DNA of 64,000 nucleotides from Escherichia coli (GCF_050920415.1 NZ_CP169309.1), one strand, 5' to 3'. Shown: positions 53,493 through 59,145, counted from the stretch's first letter. Notes: generated from the letters alone by a model not told the origin. Made by a program: numbers and translations.

Positions 53493-53876
53493 TCAGGCCT
53501 TCTCAAGCATGGCGTGCTTCTGCAGGCTCTGGATACTCAGCGTTAAGCTCATCAGACAATTTTCAAGCTTATCGGCGTTGACGGTAATAACAGTCGGGCA
53601 ATCATGGTGCCCACTCATCAAACATACTGCGGCTGTCGCTAATGCTTCTTCAGCATGATGAAGAGCACTCCACTCTTCCTGATCCAGATGAAGATTCAAC
53701 CGCAGCGATTTATCGTGCAGTTCGCGATTCAGTTTAAAAAAGTTATCTCGTAGATGATTGCTTTCGCTGACGGACATGTATCCTTTTGCCTTCCTCAGTT
53801 GCACGTATGCAGCGAGGTCAACGCGTGCGTCGATCAACCGGTTCAGCAGATCGATTCGCTGTCTGTCAACGAACAT
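53493..53876 (-). CDS. bssR: Biofilm regulator BssR (YliH)
   Basis: 127 aa from MFVDRQRIDLLNRLIDARVDLAAYVQLRKAKGYMS... Confidence 0.9.
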   Translation of the reverse strand: MFVDRQRIDLLNRLIDARVDLAAYVQLRKAKGYMSVSESNHLRDNFFKLNRELHDKSLRLNLHLDQEEWSALHHAEEALATAAVCLMSGHHDCPTVITVNADKLENCLMSLTLSIQSLQKHAMLEKA

Positions 53877-54088
53877 ACTTCGATCCTCCTCTTTCCAGCC
53901 TTGTTGCAATTAAATAGTATGGCTATTTATTGAGCAAAATGCTGTCCAGGATCAATTCTTCACCCCGAATTAACAAAATTTACATTTCCTTCGCCTCCGC
54001 CAGCGAATGAGATTGCGATACAAATTTTATCCAGAACTCTGTAGAATCCCTGCCCTGACCTTTCCTGTAACTGAATATTTTTTAAGCT

Positions 54089-55414
54089 ATGAGCAAAGTA
54101 ACTCCCCAGCCGAAAATCGGCTTTGTTTCCCTTGGCTGTCCGAAAAACCTTGTCGATTCAGAGCGTATTCTCACCGAACTACGCACCGAAGGTTATGACG
54201 TGGTACCGAGCTATGACGATGCGGACATGGTGATCGTCAATACCTGCGGCTTTATTGACAGCGCGGTACAAGAATCACTGGAAGCCATTGGCGAAGCGTT
54301 GAATGAAAACGGCAAGGTCATTGTGACCGGTTGTCTGGGGGCGAAAGAAGATCAGATCCGCGAAGTCCACCCGAAAGTGCTGGAAATCACCGGGCCTCAT
54401 AGCTATGAGCAGGTTCTTGAGCACGTTCATCACTACGTACCAAAACCGAAACACAACCCGTTCCTGAGCCTGGTGCCAGAACAAGGTGTGAAACTGACGC
54501 CGCGTCATTATGCCTATCTGAAAATTTCTGAAGGCTGTAACCACCGCTGCACCTTCTGCATTATTCCGTCTATGCGCGGCGATCTGGTGAGCCGTCCGAT
54601 TGGCGAAGTGTTAAGTGAAGCGAAACGACTGGTTGATGCGGGCGTTAAAGAGATTCTGGTGATCTCGCAGGATACTTCCGCCTATGGCGTCGATGTTAAA
54701 CATCGTACTGGCTTCCACAACGGCGAGCCGGTAAAAACCAGCATGGTCAGCCTGTGTGAACAGTTATCGAAACTGGGGATCTGGACACGTCTGCACTACG
54801 TTTACCCTTATCCACACGTGGACGACGTCATCCCACTGATGGCGGAAGGCAAAATCCTGCCGTATCTGGATATCCCGTTGCAACACGCCAGCCCGCGCAT
54901 TCTCAAACTGATGAAGCGTCCGGGTTCTGTAGATCGCCAACTGGCGCGCATCAAACAGTGGCGCGAAATCTGCCCGGAACTGACCCTGCGCTCAACCTTT
55001 ATTGTCGGCTTCCCTGGCGAGACGGAAGAAGATTTCCAGATGCTACTCGATTTCCTGAAAGAAGCACGTCTGGATCGCGTTGGCTGCTTTAAGTACAGCC
55101 CGGTTGAAGGTGCAGACGCCAATGCCCTGCCTGACCAGGTTCCGGAAGAAGTGAAAGAAGAACGCTGGAACCGTTTCATGCAGCTGCAGCAGCAGATTTC
55201 CGCCGAGCGCCTGCAAGAGAAAGTGGGCCGTGAAATTCTGGTGATTATCGACGAAGTGGACGAAGAAGGCGCGATTGGTCGCAGCATGGCAGATGCACCG
55301 GAAATCGACGGTGCGGTTTATCTCAATGGTGAAACCAACGTTAAGCCGGGTGATATCCTGCGTGTGAAAGTCGAGCACGCCGATGAGTACGATTTGTGGG
55401 GTAGCCGGGTTTAA
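54089..55414 (+). CDS. rimO: Ribosomal protein S12 methylthiotransferase RimO
   Basis: 441-aa radical-SAM MTTase with CNHRCTFC motif and TRAM domain. Confidence 0.95.
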
Positions 55415-55460
55415 TTAATTCAGGCCGGGCAAAATCATTTGTCCGGCCTGCGAATAAAGA

Positions 55461-56789
55461 TTACTGCCAGCTAATCTGCGCCCTGCCGTTTTTCTTACTC
55501 TTATACAGCCGCTCATCCGCCAGCATTTTCAAGCGTTCGACGGTAGTACATTCATTTGAATGCGCTACACCGATACTGGTGCTTAAATTAATGCTTCCCA
55601 CCTGGAAATGAACGATTTCTTTTAGAATCGATAGCAACTCCTCCAGCGTTCCGCCAGTATAAATCACCGCAAATTCGTCACCGCCGAAGCGGTAGACTTT
55701 ACCTTTATCTACCGGGATTTGTGATTTAAGGATTTTCACCACTTTCATCAACACTTCATCGCCCAGCAAATGACCGAAGGTGTCGTTAATGTTTTTGAAT
55801 TTATCGACATCAAAAAGACACAGATAGCCCCCTTTTTCCGGCAGGGCTTTTAAATCTTCATCAAAGGATTTTCTGCCCATTGCTTTGGTCAGGTCGTCCA
55901 GAAACGCCGAGTTATACATACTGTAGAGTTTTTTGACATCGGCAGCCGAGAAGAAAAGCCCACCGTCCAGGACGCGTTCAAAATGGTTATTAATAATGGC
56001 TTCTTTCTCCACAATGCCACGATTAATCACTCTGCGCACCAGATAAAGGCAGCTAGCACCCGATATCACTGCCACCAATGCAGCAAAGAAAATAATCAAC
56101 ATACATACCTGAAAATAAACGTCTTTTTTATACGAAAATACGTACAATCCGGTCGGCAAATAGGCGAAGTGCTCCATTGCTTCCGAAACGGTGAAGATGG
56201 CGTTTTTAGCATTATATTCATCACCGGTCACCGGTTTACCGTTCTTAAACAGAGAGAACATCAGGTTCTCGCTATCCATCGCCAGCGATTTTGACAGTAA
56301 AGAAAAACGCTCCAGACCAAGCAAAAATATCAGACTGCGATTGTGAGTTACCGGATAGAGGTAATAGACGAAGGTTTTACCGTCAAAAGAGATAAACCCT
56401 GTATTTTTGACATGTCGATACTTAACAACCTGCATAATATCTGCACAATAATTTTTCTCGAACTCCTTTACCTGAATACATTCGTCACTGGAAATCAGAT
56501 AAGGACCGACATCGTACAAATAAGAGGGTGAAACCGAGTCGGCGTAAGCTGTGCGCAAGCCAACCAACAGCTGTTCCTCCGTGGGATTTAGCGTGTTGAT
56601 GAGATCAATTGCCACGCTACGCCGATATTCAGCAATATTTGCCACCGCAAAAGCAGTATCAATAACGGACTGTTTCAGGCCATACACCCGTTCCTTTACC
56701 ATTTGAGTGTAGATCCCGCAGGCAACTGCTGAAATCATGATAAAAATCAGCAGACTGACTGTAAGTACGAACTTATTGATTCTGGACAT
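55461..56789 (-). CDS. dgcI: Diguanylate cyclase DgcI (YliF), membrane-anchored GGDEF protein
   Basis: 442-aa ORF with two TM segments flanking a periplasmic domain and a C-terminal GGDEF domain (RFGGDEF). Confidence 0.9.
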
Positions 56790-56796
56790 ACGTAAA

Positions 56797-59145
56797 CTAC
56801 TCTTTTACTAATTTTCCACTTTTATCCCAGGCGGAGAATGGCATGGGTTTCTGGTACAGATACCCCTGAGCCTGAACACATCCTAATTTGATTAATTCGC
56901 GCGCAACGTCTTCGCTCTCTACGCCTTCCGCAATCACCGGGATCCGGTTATAGCGTGCCAGATCGAAAATAATGCGCACAATTTTCCCCGCAGTACCGAA
57001 AATATCGCCGGTAAATTGCGAGTCCACTTTTATACTGTCTGGATTAATTTCATAAAAACGTTTCAGGTTTGACAAACCGGTGCCAAAGTCATCAATCGAT
57101 ATCCGTACCCCTTGTTTACGCAGTTGTTCAATATTGAGATAAAAATGTTCATTAATTCGCTCGATCACAGTTTCAGTGATCTCAACACAGAGGCTGTTAG
57201 CCTTCAGGCTATTTTCTTTCATGATGGTGGTAAAACGCTCATGAAAGTGTGGTTCGTTTAACTGCCAGGGCGAAACATTAATATGCAGTAAGAAACCGTC
57301 CTTCAGCGACGCACGCTGACTAAAATGTCTGAATTCACCCATTGCCGTTTTAATAATCTGATAACCCAGCTCATTGATAAACCCGATATCTTCAGCAATG
57401 GTAATGAACTTCAGCGGTGAAATGATCCCCCGCTCCGCAGACACCCAACGGCACAACGCCTCCGCCCCCAGAATGGCGCGGGTGTTAATATCAACGATCG
57501 GTTGATAGACCAGGAATAGTTCGCCAATTTCCATTGCATGGCGAATATTACGCGCAATCCAAATATTCTCTTCTATTTCGTTGAGTTTCGCGTCATCACA
57601 GAAAATAAACTCTGAGAACATATGGTCACGGATACTGGAAATCGCCAGTTTCAGTTTTTCTGCGTAACTCCAGGCGTTTTCTCCCTTCAACGGTTCACAA
57701 ATGGCAGACTTATGGATGCGCAGATTGCGGTAGCCAAAGCTGCTGTCAAAATCGTTTATCATCGCTATTTTACGGGTAAATGTCTGTACATTTTCCCGGC
57801 ACAGAAGTAAATAGAGATCGGCATTAAATGTCACGATATCGCAGCATTGCGCATATTTCTCGGCAATTCGCTGACACAATTTCCTGACGATTTTATTGCG
57901 TTCATCAACACCAAACACCGCTTCCACGGCTTCCAGACCACACAGTTTGATGATCCCCACAGCCAGATACTGATTATTGTTGGACTCAATAATCGCCATA
58001 TTTTTAATAAAACCGCTTTCCTGATCGTAAGAGATCAGTGAGAGCAATTTATTTGACCGTTCAATTTCGGCATCTTTCATTTCCGCGATCGAATTTTTGA
58101 TGCTGATAATCTCTTTCGCATCGCCTTCGCGAATTTTCAGAGCCTCGATTTGATCCGTTGAGTCGGGCAAAAATGCCAGCGTATTAACCAGCTCGGTCAT
58201 TTCAGAAAATTGCCGACGGAACACACGAGTGGTCATTAAATAAACCACCAGCAATACGATAATAATGAAAGCAAACGGCAGATAAAAAAGTTTATCTGAT
58301 GCGTTCAATAAATTACCGCCAGGATAATAAAAATAGATTTCGAATAATGCGTTGTTTGGCACCACTGATGTTTTTTCGATATATTCAGTATCGACAGAAT
58401 CAATAATATTATAATTGCCTTCGCTATTATAAATAATCAGTTTTTCACGAGCGAGTTGATTCTTGGCAATGATCTCATGGCCTTGTTTCAAAAATAGAAC
58501 TTCATCATTAGCGCTGATTTGATCAAGATACTCGTTCAGATATCGCCAGTTTAAATCGACATGAATTTTATCCACCACTAACAAATCGTGATCTTTGCCG
58601 TTGATGCGTAGCGTAAAAGAGATACATTTTTTACCCGGACGATCAAAGCAATTGTATGCCGGATTCCAGCTGTTGTTAGAGTCATCTGAAGCCACAGACC
58701 ACGGTCGTTTCGATGGGTTAAAATCGGCAAAAATAACCCGCCCTGACTCGTCGACAAGCGGTCCATTTACTTGTTCCTGATGATAAACAGCGATTTTATC
58801 ATTTGCCCTCCGCGAAAAGAGATAATATTTATTATTATCAAGTACCAGTCCCACCGAGTCTAAAAATGGCATCATTTCCATTTTAAGGATCACAGCGCGT
58901 TGAATCTCCTCTGTATTTTTTAATAAATACAGTGAGTCCTTTAATGTCAGGGCCGAACGTTCAATATCTTTAAAGAAATAGCCAACGTTTTTCTGAATAA
59001 GTTCAAAGCGGCTATCGGCACGTTTTACCGCGCGTTCCGATACCAGTTGATAGTTAATGATGAAAAAAAGACCAATAAATGACAGCGCTGCCAATAAAAA
59101 TAAAATTATCAACCTTATTTTTATCTTTTCGTATAAACTCAGCAT
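56797..59145 (-). CDS. pdeI: c-di-GMP phosphodiesterase PdeI (YliE), membrane-anchored EAL protein
   Basis: 782-aa ORF with N-terminal TM and periplasmic region, C-terminal EAL domain (GAEALCRW). Confidence 0.9.

Follow-up and report, generated by a model that had tools for sequence, protein, structure and literature searches.

The core-genome pdeI-dgcI pair of Escherichia coli as a probable two-gene module of cyclic di-GMP turnover

The CSS-domain phosphodiesterases (PDEs) of Escherichia coli, PdeC, PdeB, PdeD, PdeG and PdeN, are under redox control through a periplasmic disulfide. The neighbouring genes pdeI (yliE) and dgcI (yliF), the subject of this work, encode two other membrane proteins of cyclic dimeric guanosine monophosphate (c-di-GMP) metabolism, both of them counted among the 29 GGDEF/EAL proteins of E. 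coli K-12, with published motifs and domain families. We analyzed the pair in a stretch of 64,000 nucleotides (NZ_CP169309.1, GCF_050920415.1; hereafter the window, with positions counted from its first letter), in which the approximately 12 kb around the pair reads as E. coli chromosome. On balance, pdeI-dgcI is probably a two-gene c-di-GMP turnover module of the Escherichia core genome, co-transcribed and acting as a signal-gated push-pull pair. The genes are read from the minus strand with pdeI first:

56797-59145, minus strand: pdeI (yliE, b0833) coding sequence, 782 amino acids (aa), from the open reading frame (ORF) and RefSeq annotation; first transmembrane segment (TM1), dCache-like periplasmic sensor, TM2, linker, putative degenerate GGDEF, EAL
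56790-56796, minus strand: spacer from the pdeI TAG to the dgcI ATG, TTTACGT, 7 bp, identical in K-12
55461-56789, minus strand: dgcI (yliF, b0834) coding sequence, 442 aa, from the ORF and RefSeq annotation; TM1, GAPES2 periplasmic domain, TM2, GGDEF

The spacer was read directly, and two co-directional genes 7 bp apart had also been noticed in an earlier reading made from the sequence only. In K-12 MG1655 (b0833/b0834) the protein lengths, the neighbours and the 7-bp junction are identical, with 9 of 782 residues changed in PdeI (98.8% identity) and 6 of 442 in DgcI (98.6% identity), none of them in a motif or catalytic position. A 6-kb query was 100% identical to strain MFDS1022581, where RefSeq labels pdeI, dgcI, rimO and bssR, and the locus was found in 5425 of 5426 complete E. 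coli genomes. It is a named, catalogued E. coli pair and as such already known. The ratios of nonsynonymous to synonymous divergence (dN/dS) relative to K-12 were 0.072 for pdeI and 0.044 for dgcI, compared with 0-0.10 for the neighbouring genes, and both genes are under purifying selection.

In the mechanism we propose, PdeI would be an inner-membrane protein in which signals from a dCache-type sensor pass by way of TM2, a helical linker and then a dead GGDEF-fold domain into a complete EAL domain that hydrolyses c-di-GMP. DgcI, likewise in the inner membrane, would combine its GAPES2 periplasmic domain with a complete GGDEF domain and synthesise c-di-GMP free of RxxD inhibition. Transcription of both genes would start in the gsiD-pdeI spacer and end at a hairpin before the convergent rimO, and the resulting signal-gated push-pull pair would answer to periplasmic cues by setting c-di-GMP, perhaps in a local pool. 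The ligand gating, the functional coupling and the local action of the pair are what we infer; the domain boundaries on which the mechanism is built are given below.

59056-59112, minus strand: PdeI TM1, aa 12-30, mean hydropathy 3.1
58291-59055, minus strand: PdeI periplasmic sensor, aa 31-285
58696-59043, minus strand: CHASE9 (Pfam) in PdeI, aa 35-150, E 8e-63, 210 bits (cutoff 27)
58624-58650, minus strand: PdeI periplasmic cysteine pair C166/C174
58234-58290, minus strand: PdeI TM2, aa 286-304, mean hydropathy 2.79
58024-58233, minus strand: PdeI cytoplasmic linker, aa 305-374
57571-58023, minus strand: PdeI putative degenerate GGDEF-fold domain, about aa 375-525, NADLY (aa 441-445) at the GGDEF position
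56845-57552, minus strand: PdeI EAL domain, aa 532-767, Pfam EAL 232 bits, E 7e-69
57448-57462, minus strand: EALCR, PdeI aa 562-566
56712-56768, minus strand: DgcI TM1, approximately aa 8-26
56103-56714, minus strand: DgcI GAPES2 (Pfam), aa 26-229, E 5e-141, 468 bits (cutoff 27)
56445-56480, minus strand: DgcI periplasmic cysteine pair C104/C115
56049-56120, minus strand: DgcI TM2, approximately aa 224-247
55479-55907, minus strand: DgcI GGDEF domain, aa 295-437, Pfam GGDEF 89 bits, E 3e-25
55671-55691, minus strand: RFGGDEF, DgcI aa 367-373, the same in all paralogues

The active sites of both enzymes are complete, and the intact RFGGDEF and EAL motifs named in the sequence-only reading were found as described. 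When PdeI was aligned to the active EAL structures 5yrp, 2r6o (TBD1265), RocR and YahA, all catalytic positions were matched: EALxR, the catalytic Asn, ExxE, the DDFGTG loop 6 (D685-D686-FGTG), the Lys, EGVE and QG. Residues E562, R566, N623, E655, E658, D685, D686, K706, E740, E743 and Q760 are invariant among paralogues that are only 31-42% identical, and the same result for the EAL residues of yliE has been published (PMC3484386, Table 1). The EAL domain of PdeI is thus predicted from its residues to hydrolyse c-di-GMP. In DgcI, alignment to DgcZ and DosC showed the GG[DE]EF signature together with the metal-binding Asp, the guanine-binding Asn/Asp and the transition-state Lys/Arg (K332, N335, D344, R367, GGDEF, K432 and R436 all present), and D327, D329, K332, N335, H340, D344, R367, GGDEF, K432 and R436 are invariant in the same set of paralogues. 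No RxxD I-site is present in DgcI or any paralogue, the position aligned to the DgcZ I-site reading VDKG, and the I-site of yliF has also been listed as non-consensus (Spurbeck et al., PMC3484386). DgcI is therefore predicted to be a diguanylate cyclase with a complete GGDEF site that lacks RxxD product inhibition. Degeneration of the active sites, which would have spoken for inactive proteins, was seen neither in the DgcI GGDEF nor in the PdeI EAL domain, and a degenerate-enzyme alternative is rejected for these two domains because their catalytic residues are complete and invariant in such distant paralogues. Of the opposing c-di-GMP activities proposed earlier, the catalytic part is borne out by the two sites, and gating by ligands follows, as an inference, from the families of the sensor domains.

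The Pfam score of the DgcI GGDEF domain is modest because the domain is approximately 17 residues shorter than the Pfam model; the alignment gaps relative to DgcZ and DosC fall in the variable loop that follows the GGDEF strand and precedes the SIGVA strand. In most genomes RefSeq names DgcI only as "GGDEF domain-containing protein". Many database entries for DgcI are truncated (176-399 aa; protein clusters P0047, P0055, P0215 and P0216), and some of these clusters have hundreds of members, including Shigella.

Transmembrane segments were assigned from hydropathy (Kyte-Doolittle 19-residue means for PdeI) and two were found in each protein, so that the large periplasmic domains previously placed between them are real: CHASE9 in PdeI and GAPES2 in DgcI, both with scores far beyond chance. 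An AlphaFold2 model of PdeI aa 31-285 (predicted local distance difference test, pLDDT, 85.6; predicted template modelling score, pTM, 0.82) contained a long N-terminal helix followed by two tandem PAS-like alpha/beta modules, with CHASE9 corresponding to the first half, that is, the N-terminal helices and the first module. In this model the PdeI sensor is a double-Cache (dCache) ligand-binding fold. No dCache or Cache profile of Pfam matched aa 31-285 or aa 151-285 at E <= 10, and no ligand-binding motif could be transferred. GAPES2 gave no relation to the PdeI sensor in hhalign and nothing meaningful in a phmmer search of the PDB sequences, where it has no detectable relative among solved structures. 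The question whether the periplasmic regions are CHASE- or Cache-like can thus be answered with yes for PdeI, by CHASE9 and by the modelled fold, and with GAPES2, a domain that showed no relation to the PdeI sensor in hhalign, for DgcI.

Judged by their sequences, both sensor families are extremely narrow. PdeI aa 1-531 had only 53 matches among 1.84 billion representative proteins, mostly Escherichia fragments, and with so few relatives a deep alignment of this region could not be built; GAPES2 sequences were found almost solely in Escherichia and Salmonella. Two of the apparent homologues of the PdeI N-terminus (P0189 and P0195) have odd sequences rich in G, R, S and V that align along their length, and they resemble the output of assemblies full of errors more than true variants. 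Each sensor carries a pair of cysteines, 8 residues apart in PdeI and 11 in DgcI, that is present in every homologue covering the region and may form a disulfide. The literature search gave no reported ligand for the PdeI or the DgcI sensor, in agreement with the earlier remark that the ligands are undefined.

Between TM2 and the EAL domain of PdeI lie approximately 225 residues without a Pfam match at E <= 10. The linker (aa 305-374) has been called HAMP (bioRxiv 2025.05.09.653004), a label not confirmed here, as the HAMP profile of Pfam gave no match to it at that threshold. The remainder we call a degenerate, catalytically dead GGDEF-fold domain (aa ~375-525) on structural grounds. The NCBIfam GGDEF-EAL profiles GepA and DosP align over the middle region and the EAL domain. 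A model of aa 360-531 (172 residues) had low confidence (pLDDT 58.9, core 66-84), and 47 of its 49 Foldseek matches in the PDB at E <= 0.001 were GGDEF domains with template modelling scores of 0.5-0.6, including those of DosP and LapD, the other two being GTP cyclohydrolase III and a guanylate cyclase. At the strand-turn-strand motif position PdeI has NADLY and the paralogues have NSNTY, SSDLY, NKNKY, SPYKY, STETY and SDKRF, with GGDEF in none. The assignment depends on the fold of this low-confidence model because no sequence profile gave a significant match: in hhalign the probability of a relation to the DgcI family was 0.3%, and a hidden Markov model search of the PDB sequences reached the GGDEF domain 3mtk, in the expected register, only at a non-significant E of 0.37. 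In a single local alignment, also non-significant, the stretch with the guanine-binding Asn is deleted. The call agrees with two published descriptions (PMC11651652; bioRxiv 2025.05.09.653004), and G412, the residue changed in the published G412S allele, lies in this domain. PdeI is accordingly a membrane sensor joined to an EAL domain, as had been read, with the putative GGDEF-fold domain between TM2 and EAL having been overlooked.

Paralogous pairs occur in accessory DNA. Including the core-genome copy, five lineages were identified (31-42% identical), always with a PdeI-like gene followed by a DgcI-like gene and with gaps from -11 to +32 bp. The four accessory lineages are:

IncHI1B plasmids, about 100 records: ORFs overlap by 11 bp; bcsA-bcsB-bcsC immediately downstream
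Accessory chromosomal island of E. ruysiae and 10 E. coli genomes (L008): gap of 4 bp; bcsA-bcsB-bcsC downstream, then a GAPES3-GGDEF-EAL gene
Salmonella plasmid-like contigs and a related contig resembling an integrative and conjugative element (L005-L007, L009): gap of 9 bp with a strong Shine-Dalgarno sequence; no bcs genes
A further E. coli plasmid lineage (L010, L011): gap of 32 bp; bcsA-bcsB approximately 3.4 kb downstream, beyond a transposase gene

Accessory bcs cellulose-synthase genes are thus near the pair in three of the four accessory lineages, and the pairwise identities of the PdeI-like and DgcI-like proteins track each other across lineages. This is good comparative evidence that the pair is inherited and used as a unit, and the paired inheritance matches a recent report (bioRxiv 2025.05.09.653004). 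The bcs-linked paralogues hint at a target of the cellulose-synthase type. In the E. ruysiae/E. coli island the gene for the GAPES3-GGDEF-EAL sensor (L008, 19208-21196) stands at the end, so that the bcs cluster has c-di-GMP enzymes on both sides. In plasmid pS163-2.4 a group II intron reverse transcriptase/maturase gene (ltrA; L003, 19216-20562) is located between bcsB and bcsC.

The features relevant to transcription of the core-genome pair are the following:

59146-59320, minus strand: gsiD-pdeI intergenic spacer, 175 bp
59230-59257, minus strand: sigma-70-like candidate TTGTAA-16-TAGAAT, 9/12 consensus, best match, not significant alone
55421-55450, both strands: hairpin with a 13-bp stem, within the 46 bp that separate the stop codons of the convergent genes dgcI and rimO

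A scan of the region for sigma-70 promoters gave 11 promoter-like matches where 10.6 were expected from shuffled sequence. A 250-bp fragment upstream of pdeI drives reporter expression in K-12 (PMC11651652). The hairpin had folding energies of -22.2 kcal/mol (z -3.1) on the minus strand and -26.6 kcal/mol (z -4.7) on the plus strand; it is not a canonical intrinsic terminator because a U tract is missing on both sides, and it is the probable end of both the dgcI and the rimO transcript. The terminator scan found no canonical terminator at either end of the pair and no terminator-like site at the junction, and an Rfam search of the locus found nothing, including no c-di-GMP riboswitch. Both mRNAs increase with BolA (3.4-fold and 2.0-fold; PMC5605933), and both are up at 37 C (PMC12890032). 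Given the 7-bp gap, the conserved order and this co-regulation, a single pdeI-dgcI transcript is likely. For the single transcript assumed in the sequence-only reading, the short gap, the order kept in five lineages and the joint rise of the mRNAs speak in its favour.

Several observations weigh against a co-transcribed module of opposing enzymes, and they are shared among the other explanations of the locus. The literature search found no enzymatic assay of PdeI or DgcI. The Shine-Dalgarno sequence before dgcI is weak, with only a distant AAGAG upstream; DgcI protein was undetectable in K-12 under conditions where 25 of 29 GGDEF/EAL proteins were detected (PMC5635695); and genomic SELEX (systematic evolution of ligands by exponential enrichment) placed an RpoN-holoenzyme peak inside yliE, upstream of yliF (PMC8743547). 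These three points favour a reading in which the genes are neighbours without coupling, pdeI acting on the global c-di-GMP pool and dgcI being essentially silent or having an internal promoter of its own for other conditions. The deletion phenotypes, which differ between the genes, point the same way, yliE having a role in biofilm colonisation resistance in vitro (PMC3646849) and yliF deletion affecting adherence to bladder cells (PMC3484386). We consider this reading unlikely, though not one to be dismissed lightly. Lineages that have diverged to 31-42% identity, plasmids included, retain the two genes in the same order, and a pair that always travels as a unit with all catalytic residues kept argues that the "silent" dgcI is functional. 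Purifying selection on dgcI is as strong as on its neighbours, the two mRNAs change together, and an internal sigma-54 promoter was rejected, as no GG-N10-GC site with at least 8/11 consensus was present on either strand at 55400-59350. Formation of c-di-GMP from 2 GTP by DgcI has its sole indirect support in the complementation of the yliF deletion phenotype in CFT073 by the cyclase WspR (PMC3484386). DgcI is toxic when overproduced (PMC5635695).

The remaining objection concerns the sign of PdeI activity. Overexpression of PdeI raised c-di-GMP about 11-fold and PdeI was called a synthetase (PMC11651652, eLife RP97543); in the same work the level of PdeI-BFP correlated with c-di-GMP and G412S abolished the c-di-GMP effect. 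PdeI might on these grounds be a net c-di-GMP producer, either through a catalytic divergent GGDEF domain or by activating, when unstimulated, a cyclase such as DgcI, and since dgcI is absent from the discussion in PMC11651652 an indirect route by way of DgcI is conceivable. We give this little credence. The middle domain has NADLY instead of GG[DE]EF, shows no significant profile match to the DgcI GGDEF domain and lacks the guanine-binding Asn stretch in the one alignment mentioned, itself non-significant; direct synthesis is very unlikely because the motif position varies freely among the paralogues. The EAL site is complete, and overexpressed pdeI blocks the c-di-GMP-dependent phage N4, as do five other PDEs (PMC7553319). 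In a pdeH mutant, motility is restored by suppressor mutations in pdeI, and such suppressors, G412S among them, bring c-di-GMP down (Reinders 2016, as cited in PMC12890032 and PMC11651652). That PdeI, as cited in PMC11651652, requires an activating mutation to act in the pdeH mutant could also be taken to mean that one of the proteins, or both, lacks enzyme activity and serves as a receptor or scaffold in the manner of CdgI, CsrD or BluF, with contacts between proteins as its sole means of signalling, as could the modest score and short length of the DgcI GGDEF domain and its generic name in RefSeq. This is scarcely credible when all catalytic residues of both domains are present and invariant across deep paralogues, the residues missing from DgcI fall in the variable loop after the GGDEF hairpin and PdeI has a PDE phenotype in vivo. 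A bolder form of the push-pull module, in which PdeI and DgcI would be obligate physical partners, is decidedly unlikely: the dead GGDEF-fold domain would pair with the GGDEF domain of DgcI, the sensors would jointly decide whether c-di-GMP is made or destroyed, and the ancestral job would be a local feed to a neighbouring PilZ-type cellulose synthase. If true, such a partnership would reconcile the reports of c-di-GMP being lowered (PMC7553319) and raised (PMC11651652).

On the plus strand of the window the order is dacC, gstB, yliI, bssR, rimO, dgcI, pdeI, gsiD, gsiC, gsiB, with these direct neighbours:

53493-53876, minus strand: bssR, beyond rimO as seen from the pair
54089-55414, plus strand: rimO, convergent on the 3' end of dgcI across the 46-bp gap
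59321-60232, minus strand: gsiD, upstream and co-directional neighbour of pdeI; gsiABCD are the upstream neighbours

bssR and rimO had been placed just upstream of the pair; both are downstream of dgcI, the pair being read on the minus strand with pdeI first and rimO converging on it. The interval first proposed for the locus (53493-59145) contains the pair, and since its start coordinate falls on the 3' end of bssR it also takes in two genes outside the pair.

The GC content is 41.3% in pdeI and 43.5% in dgcI, compared with 52-53% in rimO and gsiD and 50.2% in the window. Synteny was examined by a genome scan anchored on RimO followed by tblastn of the neighbours, and among the species sampled in this way the pair was present only in E. 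albertii. Citrobacter werkmanii, Mangrovibacter and two Enterobacter species have rimO converging on gsiD with nothing in between but about 40-90 bp; in a third Enterobacter species and Erwinia psidii the junction holds 0.5-0.9 kb with no match to the pair; and in Superficieibacter electus it holds about 3 kb of unrelated ORFs (L013, 9448-12286). One product of the Superficieibacter junction is a 229-aa repeat protein with a homologue (237 aa) between rimO and dgcI in E. albertii (L012, 2016-2729). The rimO/gsiD junction is a variable spot, and by composition and distribution the pair looks like an old horizontal low-GC insertion at this junction, which in this analysis was found in Escherichia alone. 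Divergent bssR and rimO genes are present already in Citrobacter, Enterobacter, Leclercia, Superficieibacter and Mangrovibacter. Given that the pair is inserted at a variable junction and that bssR-rimO-gsiD exists without it, its nearness to bssR tells nothing about function; bssR as a part of the system was rejected since other genera have bssR-rimO-gsiD without the pair, and the position beside bssR should not be taken as functional linkage.

Some observations concern the strain and its annotation. Only 5 of the 5425 complete E. coli genomes with the locus match 53400-59400 at 99% or more, the remainder at 95-99%; the lineage of the window is thus one that has been sampled sparsely. Between this strain and K-12, synonymous divergence amounts to 0.42 in gsiC (60235-61155), 0.07-0.14 in gsiD, pdeI, dgcI, rimO and yliI and 0.012 in bssR, an unevenness that suggests a mosaic of recombined segments. 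The mechanical ORF of bssR runs 11 codons further upstream to a TTG (window 53877-53909); the start in the RefSeq, Pfam and NCBIfam models is the ATG at 53876 (127 aa).

As both genes are already named and catalogued in E. coli, nothing here is new, and with several phenotypes and the plasmid-borne bcs-linked paralogues also already published, little is added for the field. The question of which periplasmic signals switch PdeI and DgcI, and of their target, is no more testable after this finding than before; if the sensor of PdeI has the modelled dCache fold, it could be screened for ligands in the way that ligand-binding domains of chemoreceptors are.

Compared with known systems, the locus is closest to the pair of K-12, which has the same genes, lengths, neighbours and junction, the substitutions numbering 9 and 6. 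Next are the accessory YliE/YliF-like pairs by the bcsA2-4 clusters (bioRxiv 2025.05.09.653004), which share the order, the architecture, the intact EAL and GGDEF, the degenerate middle domain and the Cys pairs, and which differ in being 31-42% identical, located on IncHI1B or other plasmids or islands and having overlapping ORFs or a strong Shine-Dalgarno sequence; unlike three of the four accessory lineages, the core-genome pair has no adjoining bcs genes. The modelled fold of the PdeI sensor resembles the periplasmic dCache domains of chemoreceptors and sensor kinases, namely McpU (6f9g), PctA/PctD, CqsR (9nia) and DctB, with a sequence identity of only 6-15%, and Pfam puts this sensor in CHASE9, not in dCache_1. 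A motif-less GGDEF-fold domain directly upstream of EAL, as predicted for PdeI, is likewise found in the tandem of DosP/PdeO and LapD type; the EAL of PdeI is catalytically complete, whereas that of LapD is not, and the PdeI middle domain is too diverged for a significant sequence-profile match. Finally, PdeI shares with the CSS-domain PDEs the plan of an EAL PDE with two transmembrane segments and a conserved periplasmic Cys pair (C166/C174 in PdeI); no CSS-motif domain was matched in PdeI by Pfam, and PdeI is set apart from these enzymes by its predicted dCache fold and its extra GGDEF-fold domain.

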